Virus record (IMG/VR): IMGVR_UViG_3300005805_000085
Location: 1,963 to 65,962 of that record
DNA length: 64,000 bases
Direction: 5' to 3' (one strand)
DNA from: an uncultured virus (IMG/VR IMGVR_UViG_3300005805_000085)
Lineage: Duplodnaviria; Heunggongvirae; Uroviricota; Caudoviricetes
Shown here: positions 1-22,813 of the stretch, one piece after another
Layout of the letters: each line of letters opens with the position of its first letter
How positions within the stretch are numbered: the first letter of the stretch is position 1
Notes under the pieces: generated by a model
Databases searched by the model: none
The model's input: only the letters and a program-made list of their open reading frames with translations
Told to the model about the DNA's origin: nothing
Made by a program: the position numbers and the translations under genes

Positions 1-32
1 CTTAGCAAGAACTGTGCCAGGTGCTGGCGCCG

Positions 33-62
33 ATTTTATCATATAAAATCGGCCCGTGTCAA
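33..62 (-). promoter_or_regulatory. Leftward sigma-70 promoter
   Basis: TTGACA-N18-TAAAAT with extended TG, embedded in the palindrome CCGATTTTAT-CAT-ATAAAATCGG. Confidence 0.6.
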
Positions 63-128
63 GCGCAGAATTGTAACAATTTGTAACCGTGGCTTTTTCG
101 CCACAAAGCAAGATTCGTGCCAGGCGTA

Positions 129-147
129 GATGCGAATGATTCTCATT
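129..147. promoter_or_regulatory. Fur-box-like site
   Basis: Reverse complement AATGAGAATCATTCGCATC resembles the proteobacterial Fur box. Confidence 0.65.
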
Positions 148-212
148 CTCACCAAGCAAAATTCGTGCCACTAGCAAAATTCGTGCCACTAGCAAGATTC
201 GTGCCAGGCTAA

Positions 213-260
213 GTTAGTGAGCACTCACTAACCCCACCAAGTTAGTGAGCACTTACTAAC
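213..260. repeat. Two 20-bp operator-like palindromes
   Basis: GTTAGTGAGCACTCACTAAC (213-232) and GTTAGTGAGCACTTACTAAC (241-260). Confidence 0.8.
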
Positions 261-273
261 CTGCAAAGCAGGT

Positions 274-372
274 TGCGCCAGTGCAAAACCTTGTCAAGTG
301 CAAAATCTTGGCCGTGCGCCAGTGCAAAACCTTGCAAGCGCAAAAACTTGGTCTTCTTGCGCCAGTGCAAAA
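274..372. repeat. Three direct repeats TGCGCCAGTGCAAAA at 41-43 bp spacing
   Basis: Copies start at 274, 315 and 358. Confidence 0.85.
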
Positions 373-395
373 GTGGCAAACCGAAAAATCTAGTC

Positions 396-424
396 TTGCT
401 TGTGAGTGGTAAACCTTGTATAAT
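396..424 (+). promoter_or_regulatory. T5-type sigma-70 promoter
   Basis: TTGCTT-N17-TATAAT followed by an AT-rich ATTTAT. Confidence 0.8.
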
Positions 425-456
425 ATTTATATTGAGTCAGCGATTAAAGGAACAAC

Positions 457-525
457 ATGAACAAATTTGTGCCACCGGATACCGTAGGCGATTTACCTGA
501 CTGGTTGAAGCCTAAAAAATCCTGA
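457..525 (+). CDS. 22-aa micropeptide MNKFVPPDTVGDLPDWLKPKKS
   Basis: Own promoter (396-424), AAGGA RBS, ATG...TGA; below the ORF-track cutoff. Confidence 0.6.
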   Translation: MNKFVPPDTVGDLPDWLKPKKS

Positions 526-526
526 C

Positions 527-555
527 TTGATTCCTAAGCCTAATCCCTGTATAAT
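527..555 (+). promoter_or_regulatory. T5-type sigma-70 promoter
   Basis: TTGATT-N17-TATAAT. Confidence 0.8.
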
Positions 556-583
556 ATTTATATTGATTGATAAGGAAACCCAA

Positions 584-892
584 ATGACTGACAAAGTAAT
601 GAACTATACCCCTGAACAAGTTCAGGAACTGGTCCAGAAGTATCAGCAAGGCGTTAGCGTTGAGCAACTGGCTGAAACTCTTGGCAAGAGCGTGCGTAGT
701 GTGGTTGCTAAACTGAGCCGCGAGGGTGTGTACGTGGCGAAGACTCGGACCCAAAACTCGGCCCGAGTCACCAAAGCTGAGCTGGTCGAGCGCATCGCTC
801 GGGTATGCGATCGTAATAGTGAACAGTTTGAATCGCTGGAAAAAGCAAATCAGGATGTTCTGACCCGCCTGGTCGAAGTGCTCAAAGCCTGA
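584..892 (+). CDS. T5 A2/D3-like small HTH DNA-binding protein
   Basis: YTPEQVQELVQKY...LAETLGKSVRSVVAKLSREGVY; TAAGGA RBS before ATG 584. Confidence 0.65.
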   Translation: MTDKVMNYTPEQVQELVQKYQQGVSVEQLAETLGKSVRSVVAKLSREGVYVAKTRTQNSARVTKAELVERIARVCDRNSEQFESLEKANQDVLTRLVEVLKA

Positions 893-919
893 TCGTGTGG
901 GGGCTGCAAAAATTTACTC

Positions 920-948
920 TTGCAACCCCCGCTCAAACAGTGTATAAT
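920..948 (+). promoter_or_regulatory. Sigma-70 promoter driving the ncRNA cassette
   Basis: TTGCAA-N17-TATAAT; no long ORF before the terminator at 1337. Confidence 0.8.
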
Positions 949-954
949 ATTATT

Positions 955-1241
955 ATAGTTTGGGAAATGCGATAAAGCGCACAAACAGAGTCCACTTAGC
1001 CAACTACAAGTGTCGATAACCTAAGTACGAGACTCAAGTTTGATTCCCAAACTATCCCACTTCAGAAAAGCAGCAGTTAGTTACTGCTAGCAGATGGTAA
1101 TATTGGTCTGTAGTTTTATGATGTCTGGCTCTGACCGGTCCCTAATGTCAAGTACCTGTGGGCAGTAACTCCAGAGAACGCACTTACGGGAATCAACCAG
1201 ACCCTAAACCAAGGCAATCCCAACCATCGTTGCTGCTTTTC
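955..1241 (+). ncRNA. Two stem-closed structured RNA domains (955-1055, 1065-1241), unknown family
   Basis: ATAGTTTGGGAA/TTCCCAAACTAT (12 bp), GAAAAGCAGCA/TGCTGCTTTTC (11 bp), inner AGTTACTGCT/GGCAGTAACT. Confidence 0.6.
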
Positions 1242-1246
1242 ACCCT

Positions 1247-1334
1247 ATTCCTCTGATGAGCTCACCAAGAGCGAAACCCAAACCAGGAAAGCTAGTGCCC
1301 CATGCCTAGGTGAGTACGGTTTAGGGTCAGGAAT
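1247..1334 (+). ncRNA. Type I hammerhead ribozyme
   Basis: Stem I ATTCCT/AGGAAT; core CTGATGA; stem II GCTC-accaa-GAGC; GAAA; stem III CCCAAACC/GGTTTAGGG; GUC cleavage triplet (cut after C1328). Confidence 0.9.
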
Positions 1335-1336
1335 CG

Positions 1337-1370
1337 AGCTCCTACAGCGCAAGTTGTAGGAGCTTTTTTA
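1337..1370 (+). terminator. Rho-independent terminator
   Basis: AGCTCCTACAGC-GCAA-GTTGTAGGAGCT followed by a T-run. Confidence 0.85.
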
Positions 1371-1387
1371 TTTGCTCCGGCGCCAAT

Positions 1388-1417
1388 ATTATACAGTGGT
1401 AAACCTTTATGTGTCAA
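1388..1417 (-). promoter_or_regulatory. Leftward sigma-70 promoter antisense to the ncRNA cassette
   Basis: TTGACA-N18-TATAAT followed by ATTGGCGCC. Confidence 0.7.
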
Positions 1418-1482
1418 GAGCAAATTTGTTGGGGTTCTGACCCTAAGCCAGAGCAAGTCGGTACAATTTACGCCCGCAAAAC

Positions 1483-1521
1483 AAAAACCCCCAAAGCCGC
1501 ATAGGTTTTGGGGGTTTTTTC
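1483..1521 (-). terminator. Terminator (bidirectional-type)
   Basis: AAAAACCCCCAAAGCC...GGTTTTGGGGGTTTTT. Confidence 0.8.
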
Positions 1522-1534
1522 TGATTACTACGGT

Positions 1535-1846
1535 TTAGGGTCGGTTATTCTTGGATAATTCCCGTTCTATGACCTCGAGCACACCTTTATTGACCTTTTC
1601 TAGACTTTCTAGGAGTTCAAGGTTCATGTTGAGCAGTAGGGCGATCCGTTCGATGTACTCCGACTTCTTGCGTGGAACCTCACCACGTTTGTTTAGGTAC
1701 TGTTTTTTCTGGTACACCTCGAGCGAGCTGAGCTTGGCAATTATGCTACGTTGTGGCACTTGTAGCTCTTGAGCTAGTTGGTCCACTGAGACACCCTCTC
1801 GGTATCTTTGCACTAGACGGTCAGTAATTTCTTTAGTATATTTCAT
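1535..1846 (-). CDS. Second A2/D3-like HTH protein, paralogue of 584-892
   Basis: MKYTKEITDRLVQRYREGVSVDQLAQEL...RSIIAKLS...ESLEKVN aligns along its length with 584-892. Confidence 0.7.
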   Translation of the reverse strand: MKYTKEITDRLVQRYREGVSVDQLAQELQVPQRSIIAKLSSLEVYQKKQYLNKRGEVPRKKSEYIERIALLLNMNLELLESLEKVNKGVLEVIERELSKNNRP

Positions 1847-1850
1847 GTTG

Positions 1851-2633
1851 TTAGTCGTCCCATGGCATATCTGCGACTTTGACTTGTTTCGGACCCTCAA
1901 CCGCCGCAACCGAAAAAATCTCATCGGGTACTAGGGGTGTGGGCATCCTGTCCCACTGCCAGGGGTCTAAGATTAAGTAGGGTGTTCGTAGCTGTGGGTG
2001 GCAAACCCAGATTTGTGTAAGCATGGTGAGTACTAGTTTAGGCACTTCCCGCCAAGGTGAGTCTAAGCCTGTAAGTTGCCAAGTTGCTAGTGCTGATCTT
2101 TGTTGACCACTTCGTTGACCAGTTTTGATGGTTAAACCTCTGGTACGAACCTCTACGAGTTCATCCGACCCTAAACCGCTCCAGGTAGTATTTTCCTTAG
2201 CCCACCTCAAGCACTCGTAAAGATCTCGACTAATAATCCTGTCTAGGCCTTCCAGCGGCCACTGCTGGTAACCCACACCCCGATCTCGTTTTTGTGCTAG
2301 CATGATTGTGGGAGCTAGGGCGCTCCAATTTACACTCTGGGGGTCACTTTGACGACGAATCAATTTTGAACGGGGAACTCTACACACCAGTCTCCATAAA
2401 CCCAAATCCCAATCGCTGCAGATATTGATACGGAGCGTCTTGGGAATGTCTACCCTACCTTGGTCGTCTAAAATAAGATTCCACCGTTGGTAATGCCCCA
2501 CAATCTGAGGCCATAGCCAGCCTTCCTTAGTGATCAGTTGTTGTTCTGCAACCCAAGCCTCAAGCAGTTTAGGGTCAGTTTGGTTAGCGATTTCGTGGAG
2601 TGGAACTGCTTCCAGCTTATTTAGTTTTTGCAT
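1851..2633 (-). CDS. Hypothetical Trp-rich protein with acidic C-terminal tail (ADMPWDD)
   Basis: 260-aa ORF downstream of promoter 2871-2899. Confidence 0.75.
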   Translation of the reverse strand: MQKLNKLEAVPLHEIANQTDPKLLEAWVAEQQLITKEGWLWPQIVGHYQRWNLILDDQGRVDIPKTLRINICSDWDLGLWRLVCRVPRSKLIRRQSDPQSVNWSALAPTIMLAQKRDRGVGYQQWPLEGLDRIISRDLYECLRWAKENTTWSGLGSDELVEVRTRGLTIKTGQRSGQQRSALATWQLTGLDSPWREVPKLVLTMLTQIWVCHPQLRTPYLILDPWQWDRMPTPLVPDEIFSVAAVEGPKQVKVADMPWDD

Positions 2634-2715
2634 CGAGTTTTAGCGTAAAATAGGGGTATAAAAATTTATTATAATTTGTATAAAAGAAAACAATTCGCCA
2701 AATTATTTATTTGGA

Positions 2716-2840
2716 GTGATTAACACCTCTAGTTTTAAACACAACTGCACTAGGCTTACTGGGCCTCCGGGAACCCTCGTTGGAATCGTCCCAGGTCCTG
2801 CATAGCTTTGTGCAGTTGTTTTAAACTAGGGTTTAATCAC
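2716..2840 (-). ncRNA. Long imperfect hairpin in a 5' leader (ncRNA or DNA cruciform)
   Basis: GTGATTAA..CTAGTTT..ACAACTGCAC pairs with GTGCAGTTGT..AAACTAG..TTAATCAC. Confidence 0.5.
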
Positions 2841-2870
2841 CAATTGTTTAATCTCTTTAGATATAACAAT

Positions 2871-2899
2871 ATTATATCATACTTTTTTGTGTTTTGCAA
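2871..2899 (-). promoter_or_regulatory. T5-type sigma-70 promoter
   Basis: TTGCAA-N17-TATAAT on the minus strand. Confidence 0.8.
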
Positions 2900-2922
2900 G
2901 CGTATTTTTATCAGTGCTTAGG

Positions 2923-3117
2923 TTAATCTTCATGTTGGACCCTGACATAGCAATCTGTGTACATTGGGGTACTGGTGAATACGTAAACTTCTCGGTGGGG
3001 AAACATCTGGTTAAAATAAAGTTTAACCTGTTCGGTGTTGATGGGGGTGTGGTCTAGGTTCTTGACCCACCAGGTGTTGTGGTTAACGACTTCGATAAAC
3101 TGGGGAGGGTTATTCAT
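2923..3117 (-). CDS. Hypothetical protein
   Basis: Coupled ORF in the minus-strand early operon. Confidence 0.55.
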   Translation of the reverse strand: MNNPPQFIEVVNHNTWWVKNLDHTPINTEQVKLYFNQMFPHREVYVFTSTPMYTDCYVRVQHED

Positions 3118-3292
3118 GGCGGTCTTCCTGGAAGTCAAACCACTCATCTAGTTCACTCCATATCGCTTGATAAATTTCGGTATGGATTTGGAGTTCAGTA
3201 GGATTATCTTGGTGCTTATGTGCACGTTGCCAGCCAAGCTGAATGCCGGTTTCAATGCACTGGTCTAGTACGGGAATGGTTTTAGGAGTCAT
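3110..3292 (-). CDS. Hypothetical protein
   Basis: Overlapping start/stop with neighbours. Confidence 0.65.
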   Translation of the reverse strand: MTPKTIPVLDQCIETGIQLGWQRAHKHQDNPTELQIHTEIYQAIWSELDEWFDFQEDRHE

Positions 3293-3486
3293 TATGCGCT
3301 CAAATCAAAGTTAGAGGGATATACAATCTGGTAGAGTTGGTCATAGGCTTTACCGATCTGGCCACTCTCCATGAGTTGGAGAATTTTTTCTAGTTCGTGT
3401 TGTTGGACTGTGTAGATGGCTTCGGTGATTTGGGTTTGCCATAGATTGGTGTCGAAGTTGGGTTTTTTATAACTATCATCCCACAT
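3292..3486 (-). CDS. Hypothetical protein
   Basis: GGAGAGG RBS before ATG 3486. Confidence 0.6.
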   Translation of the reverse strand: MWDDSYKKPNFDTNLWQTQITEAIYTVQQHELEKILQLMESGQIGKAYDQLYQIVYPSNFDLSA

Positions 3487-3757
3487 AGTGGTACCTCTCC
3501 AAAATAGTACGGATACAATCGCTAATAGCATTTAGTTCTACAGTAGCTTGTGGTTCTTGTAGATGTTGCATAGGTAAGAGGGCCAGCTGGGTAGCACAGT
3601 CACGAGCGACCAGTTGTACTAGATGTTTAACACACTCCTGCTGGTACTGGTCTAGCTCATCCCAGCCGCCTTGGGCGATAAGTCCGCTGTTGTAAAGTAA
3701 GTCTTCAAAGGGATGGTGTGGAAAGTCTATAGGATTTGTGGTGTTTGTCTGGTGCAT
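3476..3757 (-). CDS. Hypothetical protein (start uncertain)
   Basis: ORF within the operon. Confidence 0.55.
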   Translation of the reverse strand: MHQTNTTNPIDFPHHPFEDLLYNSGLIAQGGWDELDQYQQECVKHLVQLVARDCATQLALLPMQHLQEPQATVELNAISDCIRTILERYHYVG

Positions 3758-3926
3758 CGTTTGCCTCGTCATCAGGTATTCGTTCGCCATAGGGGTCAAT
3801 AATATCAAATCGTTTACCGCACTGCTTACACCACCACCAAGACCAGCCTAGGCCGTTGTAGTGGAAAAGCTTTTGGCCGGTGTGGTTGTTAGGTGGACAT
3901 GGAGTTCTGTCTAAGTTTAGTTTCAT
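3705..3926 (-). CDS. Hypothetical small Zn-ribbon-like protein
   Basis: C..H and CKQC motifs; ATGA overlap. Confidence 0.55.
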   Translation of the reverse strand: MKLNLDRTPCPPNNHTGQKLFHYNGLGWSWWWCKQCGKRFDIIDPYGERIPDDEANDAPDKHHKSYRLSTPSL

Positions 3927-4234
3927 TTGTCAACTCCAAACTGGTCTTTAATGAGTTTAGCTAAAGTCCAACCCCTAATATCCGGATTACGAGCAGCTAT
4001 ACTAGCACATTCCAGAATAATCAACTCGGCGAACTTTTCTGAATAGTAATCAACCCACCTATTCATATCTTTTTCAAAATAATCGGTATCCAAGTTGGTT
4101 GTGATAGCGGCCTCAATAGCAAGTTCTCGAATCAATAGGTTCATTTGGGGTTTTACCTCAACCGGACCACACACGTGTGCATAGTCCCATGTAGGATCAA
4201 ATTGACCACATTTGTGGCATTGTATAAGCTGCAT
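3923..4234 (-). CDS. Hypothetical protein
   Basis: CHKC..HVC N-terminus; EKFAELIILEC motif common in aquatic phages. Confidence 0.65.
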   Translation of the reverse strand: MQLIQCHKCGQFDPTWDYAHVCGPVEVKPQMNLLIRELAIEAAITTNLDTDYFEKDMNRWVDYYSEKFAELIILECASIAARNPDIRGWTLAKLIKDQFGVDK

Positions 4235-4236
4235 AC

Positions 4237-4446
4237 CTACTCCTTGTAGTGTGCAAGCATATTAAGTGCCTCTAGCTGACCCCAAGTCAGAGCAAATCTC
4301 TGCCCGTCTAGTTCGCAGTCAAATCCCTCGCCGTTCTGCCATTCTGTCAGGTAGAGCTGCTTGTTCTCGCTTAGATAGCAGTACTTGTCTAGGTCTAGTT
4401 CACGTGTAGTAACTTGGTAGGTTTTAATCACAAAAATATGCCTCAA
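4237..4446 (-). CDS. Hypothetical protein
   Basis: ORF within the operon. Confidence 0.6.
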   Translation of the reverse strand: MRHIFVIKTYQVTTRELDLDKYCYLSENKQLYLTEWQNGEGFDCELDGQRFALTWGQLEALNMLAHYKE

Positions 4447-4648
4447 ATTGGTGTTTGTGGATTAGACATTTAAACCACACAGTATGTTCGTAGACGTTGG
4501 TCCACTCACGAATGTGCCACTGGTGTTGGGGAACATTTTCTCGTAACCAGTGTTTTACTGGTCTGAGCAAATCACTGTGGAATGGAGCTTGATACGCTTG
4601 GGGAATCCACCTCTGCTTATAGCTCCACTGTTCTTGCGGCGTCATCAT
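4424..4648 (-). CDS. Hypothetical protein
   Basis: AAGGA RBS, first gene after promoter 4674-4702. Confidence 0.65.
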   Translation of the reverse strand: MMTPQEQWSYKQRWIPQAYQAPFHSDLLRPVKHWLRENVPQHQWHIREWTNVYEHTVWFKCLIHKHQFEAYFCD

Positions 4649-4673
4649 ATGTCCTTTTCTCAAATTATATAAT

Positions 4674-4702
4674 ATTATAGCACAAACAAAAAGGGCATTC
4701 AA
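4674..4702 (-). promoter_or_regulatory. T5-type sigma-70 promoter
   Basis: TTGAAT-N17-TATAAT. Confidence 0.7.
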
Positions 4703-4737
4703 CACAAAAATAATTGTGGTGAATGCCCCAGTGGTAT

Positions 4738-5391
4738 TTATGATTTAATTTTTTGCCTGTAGTATTGAGTACAAGCTAGTTGTACAGCAACTAGGACAGG
4801 CAGTATCCCAACAACCCAACGATCTAGTGCTTGCAGCCAGTTAGCTAAGATTGGCTCATCAAGGATCATTTTGGTAGCTACTAGGTATAACACACCAGCT
4901 CCCCAATATACTAGCCACGGTCTATGCTCTAGGTGTTCTTGAATCCAAGTGGCCCCCCACACAATAATGGGTACACTAATTAGGAGACCTAGGATAATAA
5001 GTAGCCAACTGCCACCACTTGCCCCCGCAATAGCTAGGCTATTGTCTAGACCCATGGTAAAGTCAGCTAGTACAATGGTAGTAATGGCTCCGAACAGTGT
5101 AGTTTTACCCTCAACTGCAGCACTCTCTTGATGTTGGCCTAGCCGCCAAGCAATCCACACCAGTGCAAGTCCGCCTACCAGCCGTAAGCCTGGAATAAGG
5201 AGCAGCCATGCTAAGATAACTACACAGACGAATCGGGCTACCACCGCTCCTACTGTACCCCACAAAATAGCCTTACGCTTTAGGTCTAGTGGCAGGTTAC
5301 GACTAGCTAGTGCAATTACTAGTGCATTTTCACCGCCTAGTACAATGTCGATAAGGATGATGGTGACTAGTGCTAGGAAAAATTCCATCAT
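4738..5391 (-). CDS. TerC-family (YjbE-like) integral membrane protein
   Basis: IILIDIVLGGENALVIALASRNLP, ADFTMGLDNSLAIAGA, GLLISVPIIVWGA. Confidence 0.9.
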   Translation of the reverse strand: MMEFFLALVTIILIDIVLGGENALVIALASRNLPLDLKRKAILWGTVGAVVARFVCVVILAWLLLIPGLRLVGGLALVWIAWRLGQHQESAAVEGKTTLFGAITTIVLADFTMGLDNSLAIAGASGGSWLLIILGLLISVPIIVWGATWIQEHLEHRPWLVYWGAGVLYLVATKMILDEPILANWLQALDRWVVGILPVLVAVQLACTQYYRQKIKS

Positions 5392-5723
5392 AGCTGAATC
5401 CAGTCAATTTCGTCTTTGTACCAGACACACTCTAGTCCATCATACTCATGAATAAAAAACTTGCGATGCCGGTCGGTCCAGCAGACTTCAAGTTCTTGTA
5501 TGTCTTCTATGCTAATATTATCAAGAAGTACAGTACCCTCTTGGTTAGCAATCTCCGTTACAAGGTCTATGGCATCTTCCCAAACCCCCTCATCAACAGC
5601 CCTGCATAGTTCAGCATCCACACAAAGTCGCCAGATATAATGGTAGGTAAACCAGCCGGTACCATATCCTCGGGTGATTAGTACCCCAACCTGCCCCTGT
5701 TCGTTAGTATAGTAATTACCCAC
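5388..5723 (-). CDS. Hypothetical phage protein
   Basis: VLITRGYGTGW...EYDGLE pattern. Confidence 0.7.
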   Translation of the reverse strand: MGNYYTNEQGQVGVLITRGYGTGWFTYHYIWRLCVDAELCRAVDEGVWEDAIDLVTEIANQEGTVLLDNISIEDIQELEVCWTDRHRKFFIHEYDGLECVWYKDEIDWIQL

Positions 5724-5955
5724 GATATGCCCACTCCTTAATCTTGAGTCTAGCTAGTTCGAGCGCTTCCTCACACTGGGGAAGTGGTCCCGCATAACTA
5801 TTAGCAATAATTTGATCAACTTGTTCTACCAGTTGGTTAACAAACCAGTCTACTGGGCTCATATTAATTGGGGCCGCTAGTTGAGATTTAACCCAGAGGT
5901 CCCAAACCCCTTCACTTATATGCTGAACTTGATTGCTCACTGCAATGCCATCCAT
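5716..5955 (-). CDS. Hypothetical protein (start uncertain)
   Basis: ORF within the operon. Confidence 0.55.
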   Translation of the reverse strand: MDGIAVSNQVQHISEGVWDLWVKSQLAAPINMSPVDWFVNQLVEQVDQIIANSYAGPLPQCEEALELARLKIKEWAYRG

Positions 5956-6106
5956 GTTGAGTTTTGATTACTACACCACCGCGGGTAAAGCAGTCTTGGT
6001 GTGGGTCTAGGTGATATTTAATGGTGTTAGCTACATATGCTAGTGTGACCAGCACAAACATACCAATTAGTGTCCAGTGTAGTATGGTTTTATTTTCTTC
6101 GTTCAT
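5912..6106 (-). CDS. Hypothetical membrane protein
   Basis: N-terminal TM helix, C..RGG...C. Confidence 0.6.
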   Translation of the reverse strand: MNEENKTILHWTLIGMFVLVTLAYVANTIKYHLDPHQDCFTRGGVVIKTQHGWHCSEQSSSAYK

Positions 6107-6321
6107 ACCGTTTCCATGTTGTGGTATTTGCCAAGACCCTTGAGCAGTTCAGGATTAATAATAGGCTGATAAGCACCTTTAGCAAGGGGAACTACGCAGT
6201 GTGTTTGCTGGCGTGCTTTACGCTCGCCGCACACTAAACACAGCTTGCTGATGTAGAGATACCGCTCACGAGGCACATCATCCTGACACTGTGGATTAAC
6301 GCAGAAAAACATTGTAGTCAT
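6103..6321 (-). CDS. Small Zn-finger protein (DksA/TraR-like C4 pattern)
   Basis: CVNPQC..DVPRERY...CLVCGE. Confidence 0.55.
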   Translation of the reverse strand: MTTMFFCVNPQCQDDVPRERYLYISKLCLVCGERKARQQTHCVVPLAKGAYQPIINPELLKGLGKYHNMETV

Positions 6322-22235: not shown

Positions 22236-22415
22236 ATGGCTTGGGTATGGGTTATACTATTTTCTGTGTTAGGCACTGGCGGCGAGCACGGAACCAGAGG
22301 CGCATACTCTAGCAGAGCGGAGTGCGAACAAGCACTAATCAAACTTAAACTAGACTACGAAACTAAAGGTAAAACTCTAGTTGGTAGTTGTAGTGTTACG
22401 CAAAAGAAAATATAG
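22236..22415 (+). CDS. Small exported protein
   Basis: Hydrophobic N-terminus; YSSRAECEQA...C. Confidence 0.6.
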   Translation: MAWVWVILFSVLGTGGEHGTRGAYSSRAECEQALIKLKLDYETKGKTLVGSCSVTQKKI

Positions 22416-22758
22416 TTGTATGAAGTTAACCCAAAGGTGCTTTGGACGCGGGTTCGACTCCCGCCTGGTCCACCATAGATACATTACACCATTAACGCCA
22501 CGGGGTTATCTAGAGCTGCAGCTCGAAAAGCACACTGTGAGAAGTGCAGATAACGGTAGTGTATCTTTGATGGGCCAGTCATGGTTTCGACAGGGTGCAG
22601 AGTAGGAAAATGGACAACTCGACAATGCAGAAGTCGTAGGGCTGGGACTACCCGGCTAGAGAAGCAAACAAACTAAACGCAAACGATGAAACGTTCGCAT
22701 TAGCCGCCTAAACTCGGCTTAGGGTTCCAGGTTATCCTCGTAACAGAAAACCTGGACT
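22413..22758 (+). ncRNA. ssrA: Circularly permuted (two-piece) tmRNA
   Basis: Acceptor piece ends GGTTCGACTCCCGCCTGGTCCACCA (22475); coding piece starts GGGCCAG (22572) with G3.U70; tag 22679-22711 reads ANDETFALAA*. Confidence 0.92.
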
Positions 22759-22813
22759 TAAATGGCCATTTGGCATTTTTATTAACAATTCTTGCTCAAC
22801 TGAGGAGAATAAG

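Follow-up and report, generated by a model that had tools for sequence, protein, structure and literature searches.

The window analysed here is a 64,000-nt stretch of the genome of an uncultured virus of the class Caudoviricetes (IMG/VR record IMGVR_UViG_3300005805_000085), and positions 920–1371 of it hold a non-coding unit with a hammerhead ribozyme. We consider it probable that this unit is a conserved non-coding RNA gene whose hammerhead cleaves itself constitutively and serves in RNA processing, and that the conformational switch suggested for it in an initial annotation, made from the letters alone, is pairing between copies of a repeated motif. A host-type promoter would drive an RNA of ~415 nt comprising two structured domains, a type I hammerhead, and an intrinsic terminator, and the hammerhead would cleave constitutively after C1328, during or soon after transcription. 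The predicted products are a 5′ RNA of ~374 nt ending in ...GGGUC with a 2′,3′-cyclic phosphate and a terminator fragment of ~40 nt with a 5′-OH, the ends that hammerhead self-cleavage leaves. The conserved job of the ribozyme would be to cut a composite primary transcript into separate RNAs; the lineage of the window seems to have lost the 3′ half of that transcript, so that only the terminator would be cut off.

All of the parts named in the initial annotation, namely a promoter, two stem-closed domains, a type I hammerhead, and a terminator with no long open reading frame (ORF), were confirmed in the sequence. The sigma-70-type promoter of the unit, here called P+, lies on the plus strand at 920–948 (TTGCAA-17-TATAAT, 10/12 matches), and its −10 block is kept in close relatives; transcription presumably starts near 955. 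Domain 1 (955–1055, plus strand) is a hairpin domain closed by a perfect 12-bp repeat (955–966/1044–1055) that appears in minimum-energy folds, and domain 2 (1065–1241, plus strand) is a multi-helix domain closed by a perfect 11-bp repeat (1065–1075/1231–1241) that contains a sense copy of the motif. The terminator (1336–1371, plus strand) consists of a 13-bp stem (1336–1365) with six GC pairs followed by a T run, and its hairpin covaries between the window and relatives. No ORF longer than 54 amino acids was found within 949–1417.

The hammerhead (1247–1334, plus strand) has a complete core and three stems, with cleavage predicted 3′ of C1328. Stem I pairs ATTCCT (1247–1252) with AGGAAT (1329–1334), stem II pairs GCTC (1260–1263) with GAGC (1269–1272), and the core is made up of CTGATGA (1253–1259) and GAAA (1273–1276). 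Stem III joins 1276–1284 to 1318–1327 with A1323 bulged, and extends distally by 33 nt, a stretch in which a small hairpin (1292–1295/1306–1309) lies. The cleavage site is U1327-C1328, with A1276-U1327 forming the A15.1-U16.1 pair, and the topology is that of type I, with stem I open and stems II and III closed. A pattern scan showed this to be the sole canonical CUGANGA...GAAA core in the 65,962-b genome record.

Comparison across related phages argues that this structure has been maintained. A covariance model, R1, built from nine hammerheads, scored the window hammerhead at 114.6 bits and matched 24 distinct hammerhead sequences at one syntenic position in contigs of T5-like phages. Across this family 88.3% of cells are paired, compensatory changes occur in 17/23 pairs, and none of 500 shuffles reached the observed score; the covariation score was 0.344, against at most 0.101 for slid partners. 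By stem, compensatory pairs number 5/6 in stem I, 3/4 in stem II, and 6/9 in stem III. CUGANGA with G10.1 is present in 24/24 sequences, as is the A15.1-U16.1 pair, and the cleavage triplet is GUC throughout save for GUA in L072 (related loci are numbered with L, related genome records with G). Stem II occurs as GCUC/GAGC, GUCC/GGAC, GCCC/GGGC, GCUGA/UCAGC, GCACA/UGUGC, and GCCAG/CUGGC. Among nine close relatives RNAalifold recovered the hammerhead together with the multi-helix domain 2; the two combined had 95.6% of cells paired and compensatory changes in 16/69 pairs, again with 0/500 shuffles reaching the score. We assign the structure to the plus strand because domain 2 and stem III contain many G-U pairs. 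By its core, helices, and covariation the hammerhead appears genuine, and it is predicted to be catalytically active.

Several observations weigh against this reading. The 24 sequences come from related phages and their alignment was fitted to the model, so that the pair counts lean towards structure; we nevertheless take the hammerhead as real because stem II changes its letters while its pairing holds. At the Rfam gathering threshold no hammerhead was called in the window, and the best match in a permissive run, Hammerhead_HH9 (RF02275, type I), reached 20.1 bits (E 0.032) against a gathering score of 52. That alignment spans only model positions 14–59 of 77: nearly every letter of the core and stem II agrees (CUGAUGAGCUC...GAGCGAAACC), whereas the window lacks the distal part of stem I and has a 44-nt insert in stem III. 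Apart from this weak match, no Rfam family was detected over 850–1600. The comparison with Rfam models that the initial annotation had proposed thus stayed under the gathering score, while our own covariance model found a family; the element is a hammerhead by core and helices, yet a member of no Rfam family by score. Stem I is also short, with 5–6 bp in the group of the window and 3–4 bp in distant members. At low Mg2+ a hammerhead cleaves fast only if stem I makes a tertiary contact with loop II, and by eye we saw no conserved loop-loop or pseudoknot complementarity there, so that activity at physiological Mg2+ is not assured. Finally, metatranscriptome contigs from four sets cover 802–1271 and none lies over 1272–1700, which leaves them silent on an RNA end at 1328. 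One of these contigs (809–1229, run X17) runs into Illumina adapter at 1229, inside the hairpin loop 1214–1236; this single observation may mark a frequent fragment end.

The position of the ribozyme in related phages is what suggests its job. Homologous cassettes were collected by pattern scans of viral and metagenome contigs, which gave eight viral loci and then L040 and L043; over the core L004, L005, and L012 are duplicates, as are L009 and L044, and L013 and L046. L045 was discarded as a chance match, and five further loci from these scans have an unrelated type I hammerhead. A search with the small helix-turn-helix (HTH) protein encoded just upstream of the unit returned 33 loci, and model R1 then located the ribozyme in many of them and in L018, L027, and L033. 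Seven regulator-linked loci had no hammerhead at E ≤ 0.01 and no other ribozyme, only transfer RNAs (tRNAs), and look like other paralogue contexts. The order of HTH gene (plus), hammerhead RNA (plus), HTH paralogue (minus), and ORF260 (minus), a conserved 260-amino-acid ORF beyond the paralogue, is kept in 12/13 loci examined, including L018, L027, and L033, which were reached via an unrelated 16-mer match. The exception is L024, in which HTH paralogue matches lie at least ~2 kb from the hammerhead and ORF260 has no match. Together, the intact core, the covariation, and this fixed position point to selected self-cleavage. Other viral contigs (L001, L006, L007, L008, and L011) have, just upstream of a protein gene, a distinct type I hammerhead that agrees in its core and stem II letters but has a short stem III.

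The size of the non-coding unit varies from 0.4 to ~1.4 kb overall. In most relatives it measures ~0.8–1.4 kb with the hammerhead in the middle, and in three lineages the hammerhead directly follows a tRNA-Glu, which is why we propose that it serves to cut a composite transcript. ARAGORN placed tRNA-Glu(UUC) at 4206–4280 in L062, 2449–2523 in L059, 3911–3985 in L067, and 3854–3928 in L066; its CCA end abuts hammerhead stem I in the first three, and in L066 the tRNA precedes the hammerhead by 87 nt. The same program found no tRNA in the unit of the window. The Rfam tRNA model at E ≤ 1 misses the tRNA-Glu of L062.

The longer form is illustrated by L062, with promoters at 3312–3620, the hammerhead at 4272–4389, a terminator at 4985–5021, and a convergent promoter at 5110–5081. 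This unit (3300–5150) gave no Rfam match at E ≤ 1, hammerhead included, and has no ORF longer than 86 amino acids; when 3600–5120 was compared with phages, the embedded tRNA-Glu was the only match. Conserved blocks 3′ of the hammerhead are common to 10 loci. In L062 (4390–5021) and nine other loci they lie in a conserved non-coding 3′ half of ~450–700 nt, with two to three sense copies of the motif and one invariant TTTAGGGTC, which is absent from the window. This 3′ half may be a new large phage RNA. GOLLD and ROOL are large, structured, conserved non-coding phage RNAs that run from promoter to terminator in tRNA-rich genomes, and the unit described here is of a similar type; other than the weak HH9 match, no Rfam family matched the window or the 1.4-kb unit of L062, in an Rfam set in which the GOLLD and ROOL models were not checked by name. 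Domain 1 is confined to the closest relatives, and L003, L040, and L043 have another 5′ domain as well as 72 to ~290 nt inserted between hammerhead and terminator. In 14 more distant loci nhmmer found no counterpart of domains 1 and 2, recovering the motif alone. These comparisons suggest that ancestrally the hammerhead stood in the middle of a composite non-coding transcript, of which the lineage of the window kept the 5′ part only.

The initial annotation had also noted that 1200–1210 is complementary to 1318–1328 and that GCTCACC (1260–1266) can pair with GGTGAGT (1309–1315), and both pairings are present, the first as a perfect 11-bp match. From them it read a built-in switch. Its overall reading survives in part: the non-coding unit with an apparently genuine type I hammerhead, conserved and with covariation in domain 2 and the hammerhead, stands, whereas a selected switch is not supported. 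In such a switch the helix 1200–1210/1318–1328 (helix 1) would compete with stem III and hold the ribozyme off until a factor, for example a protein binding single-stranded CCUAAACC, frees the stem III strand; we regard this as improbable. The 1200–1210 arm (plus strand) is a sense copy of the motif, GACCCTAAACC, in which GACCCTAAA is invariant in 9/9 close relatives and the last two bases are C or T. Helix 1 is paired in all nine, the only changes being C to U at the last two positions, which keep G-U pairs, and such invariance is also expected of a functional partner. CCTAAACC is moreover unpaired in the consensus fold and could be a ligand or protein site.

Comparative evidence nonetheless goes against a switch. 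Across the nine close relatives, where the initial annotation had looked to covariation as a check, helix 1 shows not one compensatory change. In the 14 more distant hammerhead loci no complement of at least 10/11 lies at a comparable upstream position, so homologues exist that keep the hammerhead and lack the 1200–1210 complementarity. L027, L018, and L033 have one weak upstream match at −29/−30 (seven Watson-Crick and three G-U pairs), which does not track the hammerhead tail, because its sequence is the same although the tail of L027 differs from those of L018 and L033. The second pairing (1260–1266/1309–1315, helix 2) fares no better: three of its seven pairs form in 1/9 sequences, the window only, and the 8/8 close relatives read GCAGACT where the window has GGTGAGT. 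In addition, the bases G1200 to C1202 are used by the covarying helix 4 of domain 2, in which GTCTGG (1123–1128, plus strand) pairs with CCAGAC (1197–1202), with 96.3% of cells paired and one pair changed from UA to GC in two sequences; helix 4 and helix 1 are mutually exclusive.

Forced folds of the full RNA with ViennaRNA put the window hammerhead at −109.7 kcal/mol and the alternative at −105.2 kcal/mol, 4.5 apart, and the forced alternative was the less stable in 6/9 sequences. The cleaved 5′ product gave the same 6:3 split, with −106.7 kcal/mol (hammerhead) and −101.9 kcal/mol (alternative) for the window. On the side of a switch, folding L002, L010, and L043 (3/9) to minimum energy yields the alternative, and the two folds differ by 0.2–10 kcal/mol across the sequences, near enough in energy that competition is physically possible. 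The minimum-energy fold of the window itself uses the window-specific helix 2 and lies 0.7 kcal/mol below the hammerhead fold. These are model values and compatible with competition; as modelled, they lend no support to a designed switch. Refolding of the cleaved 3′ end onto the internal copy is possible by the same calculations. A competing helix that sequesters a strand of a hammerhead stem is an established means of controlling cleavage in viroid and satellite hammerheads, where it is part of the rolling-circle cycle; the competitor here, by contrast, is subgroup-specific, lacks covariation, and is a copy of a dispersed motif.

Both arms of helix 1 are, moreover, copies of a motif conserved wherever it is present. 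With up to one mismatch, GACCCTAAACC has 17 copies in the window against 0.92 expected (the largest count in 100 shuffles was 4), and four relatives have 17, 21, 12, and 6 copies against 1, 0, 0, and 1 for controls. The 8-mer GACCCTAA has 17–26 copies against 4–6 for its control in five more genomes, and the degenerate form GACCCYRA has 11–27 matches against 2–9 for controls in four further records, mostly as GACCCTAA. The longer consensus of the motif is GACCCTAA(RYYGCAG). Near the locus, copies lie at 1200, 1318, 1439, 1532, 2167, and 2566, in both orientations. Copies occur across the window, for example at 2167, 10786, 20259, 28239, and 39487, and in records G001–G013.

The dispersed copies follow the direction of the genes. 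Among 53 dispersed 8-mer copies in four genomes, 0/53 are antisense in a called ORF and 44/53 lie inside a same-strand ORF, 34 of these in the frame GAC-CCT-AAx and 10 in the other frame that avoids a stop. Because the genome pairs G000/G001 and G005/G006 share motif sites, the 53 copies are not independent, and the count is weaker than it looks. We tried and set aside two simple accounts of the motif. As a promoter element it would need a −10 at a fixed distance, which most contexts lack by eye; a few copies do stand at a −35 position (window 10786 and 20259) or before a TATAAT-like hexamer (window 28239, and G005 86381 with G006 30241). As a codon or dipeptide artefact it should occur about once per genome, by a rough estimate. 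A literature search on the motif (CCCTAAACC) returned mainly plant-telomere papers and none on phages.

The ribozyme itself is built from this motif. The inverted copy at 1318–1328 (minus strand) corresponds to the 3′ strand of stem III together with the GUC of the cleavage site, and its TTAGGGTC is found in 20/24 family members, so that this tail is kept while stems I and II vary freely. Reverse-complemented, the substrate strand UUAGGGUC|AGG gives the hot-spot form CCTGACCCTAA, that is, (CCT)GACCCTAA..., and the 5′ strand of stem III (GAAACCC-AAACC in the window, GAAACUCUAAGG elsewhere) resembles a direct copy that has degenerated. To judge by the letters, stem III thus seems to be composed of two motif copies in opposite orientation. 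A second motif pair, which the initial annotation did not describe, flanks the next terminator: a further sense copy GACCCTAAGCC (1439–1449, plus strand), with 1439–1456 resembling 1200–1217 at 83% identity (family D1), and a second inverted copy TACGGTTTAGGGTC (1529–1542, minus strand), 14/14 identical to 1315–1328 (family D2) and overlapping the stop codon of the leftward gene. Trans-cleavage of this second TACGGTTTAGGGTC was considered and rejected, as the bases past GUC do not match stem I by eye. In L024 the tail of the hammerhead (6052–6145) is unrelated, and positions 550–1150 (minus strand) hold arrays of GACCCTAAACCGYAGC and degenerate relatives on either side of a terminator, with three repeats of GGTTTAGGGTCAGGAAAACATTGAAGATTTTCGACTTGACACTG.

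The 11-mer complementarity is therefore not an isolated coincidence, yet it is not specific to this RNA. We suggest that the alternative fold follows incidentally from the construction of the ribozyme, with 1200–1210 simply another direct copy of the motif. The most economical guess at the function of the motif is that the D5/GcrA-like regulators encoded on either side bind to it; its co-orientation with genes, its cluster beside the regulator genes, and the L024 arrays fit either a regulator-binding site or an RNA-level signal.

Another use of the same complementarity would be a ribozyme-matured antisense end, in which ...UUAGGGUC>p pairs with sense motif copies, either in cis, with 1200–1210 in the window and with copies in the 3′ half in other lineages, or in trans on phage mRNAs and tRNA precursors, making the RNA a guide or sponge. 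In 20/24 members the 8 conserved nt of the hammerhead tail and those of the motif are perfectly complementary, and the dispersed copies are all sense on transcripts. Sense copies matching at least 10/11 (G-U allowed) lie 150–280 nt downstream of the hammerhead in 7/14 distant loci, and the 3′ halves hold sense copies along with the further invariant TTTAGGGTC. Such partners nearby are, however, predicted by local motif density alone, and the tail is paired in stem III. The tail of the window lacks complementarity to the motif consensus past position 12 (GCAG). Nor do tail and motif co-evolve: the tails of L027, L067, and L072 depart from the motif, yet these genomes keep GACCCTAA (9, 14, and 20 copies). 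We think this role unlikely.

A more speculative extension is that the substrate strand is maintained precisely as the inverted copy of a phage-wide, transcription-co-oriented signal (CCTGACCCTAA...). Cleavage would then mature an abundant RNA whose 3′ end, ...UUAGGGUC>p, is exactly antisense and may pair with its own internal copy, with the detached 3′ half, or with the dozen-odd copies on mRNAs and tRNA precursors; alternatively, the duplex of motif and anti-motif might mimic the DNA site of the regulators. This idea is a long shot.

Downstream of the unit we recognised a second promoter, P−, that is newly described here and absent from the initial annotation. It lies on the minus strand at 1388–1417 with a full consensus (TTGACA-18-TATAAT from 1417 to 1388, 12/12) and is aimed into the cassette; its −10 block forms a 14-nt inverted repeat with that of P+ (938–951 with 1385–1398). 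An equivalent matching 11 or 12 of 12 positions is found downstream of the hammerhead in 21/22 loci, and the remaining locus has only 348 nt of flank. P− lies 77 nt past the hammerhead in the window, against 542–795 nt in 13 distant loci. The RNA from P−, as predicted from its position, would run antisense to both terminator and hammerhead; on the minus strand the terminator hairpin (1336–1365) lacks a T run.

With strong promoters converging here, the locus might instead be a DNA-level hub, an array of protein-binding sites with a regulatory or replication-related function, in which the RNA and its hammerhead are incidental or decaying. Exact 8-mer copies do cluster, with 6/18 of those in the genome falling within 1.4 kb here in both orientations and similar clusters in G005–G013; in L024 a terminator is bordered on either side by arrays of GACCCTAAACCGYAGC, HTH regulator paralogues flank the locus, and tandem repeats lie just upstream. 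An incidental sequence would not be expected to show a core intact in 24/24 members and compensatory changes in three stems, though, and the many G-U pairs in domain 2 and stem III can form in plus-strand RNA only. Promoter and terminator are conserved as well. A hub of this kind is accordingly a doubtful explanation, and we prefer the self-cleaving non-coding RNA gene.

The genes on either side encode the putative regulators. Upstream (527–892, plus strand) is the small HTH protein gene, GcrA-like or "D5-like transcriptional regulator" (Pfam GcrA, E 3.9e-06, 27.8 bits against a cut-off of 26.9; PHROG 323, E 1.4e-08), PHROG 323 being annotated as "transcriptional regulator, D5-like". Its convergent paralogue (1535–1924, minus strand) matches Pfam GcrA at E 5.4e-05 (24.1 bits, under the cut-off) and PHROG 323 at E 3.7e-04. 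Between the unit and this paralogue, a hairpin at 1483–1519 with 16-nt arms that are 94% complementary and T runs on both strands forms a bidirectional terminator that ends the leftward operon. By tblastn, three to four paralogues of the small GcrA/D5-like HTH protein were seen per locus in L040, L018, L027, L033, L062, and others. The tandem repeats just upstream of the first HTH gene lie at 155–206 (18 nt, 2.9 copies) and 274–372 (41 nt, 2.4 copies) of the window.

The phage is a freshwater, T5-like, lytic-type virus. The window comes from a 65,962-b record that is a fragment of a genome of ~98 kb; related records measure 97.5–104 kb, some with terminal repeats. Its family A DNA polymerase is 48.5% identical to the enzyme of T5-like Vibrio phages. 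Sequencing runs with the stretch are mainly lake, river, and other freshwater metagenomes, and part of the stretch was found in two wastewater and two marine runs. Megablast with window positions 1–6000 gave no match among isolated phages and no cultured relative or host was found, and ORF260 likewise had no tblastn match among isolated phages. According to Rfam the genome has 21 tRNA matches and a permuted transfer-messenger RNA (tmRNA). The tmRNA is in two pieces (22355–22781 of the window; tmRNA_permuted 116.1 bits, beta_tmRNA 110 bits), lies among the 21 tRNA matches (10.7–25.3 kb), and resembles the betaproteobacterial type.

Hammerheads of bacteriophages and prophages are known and their roles largely are not; the job proposed for them, as described by Perreault et al. 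(2011; PMC3088659), is the cutting of long phage transcripts. The window hammerhead shares with those examples the catalytic core, the three-stem junction, the phage context, and the proposed transcript-cutting job. The examples of that study mostly flank protein genes in polycistronic mRNAs, many near integrases, whereas ours belongs to a non-coding unit of its own in a T5-like phage of the lytic type, with a convergent consensus promoter opposite it and a substrate strand that coincides with a genome-wide motif. The theta (hepatitis delta virus-like) ribozymes next to phage tRNAs (PMC10879173) are likewise small self-cleaving ribozymes beside a phage tRNA, comparable to L062, L059, and L067. 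They belong to a different class, however, and the type I hammerhead cuts ~95 nt downstream of the tRNA and so does not make the tRNA end; the window unit has no tRNA. Our search of the literature found no paper linking hammerheads with T5-like phages or Demerecviridae, supplementary hit lists being outside its scope, so that overlap with the list in PMC3088659 is possible. What appears to be new is the clade, its dedicated and size-variable non-coding unit, the convergent consensus promoter, and a cleavage-site strand identical to an oriented, phage-wide motif.

Phage hammerheads are common and hardly any has an assigned role, and this clade of at least 24 sequences, uncalled by Rfam, offers a well-defined system, flanked at a fixed place by two regulator paralogues and faced by a perfect convergent promoter. 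It also illustrates that a tempting "switch" can arise trivially from repeated motifs. The link of the cleavage-site strand with a motif strictly co-oriented with genes is unexpected; if the strand is indeed kept as a deliberate antisense copy of that signal, a ribozyme and a regulatory code spanning the genome would be linked.

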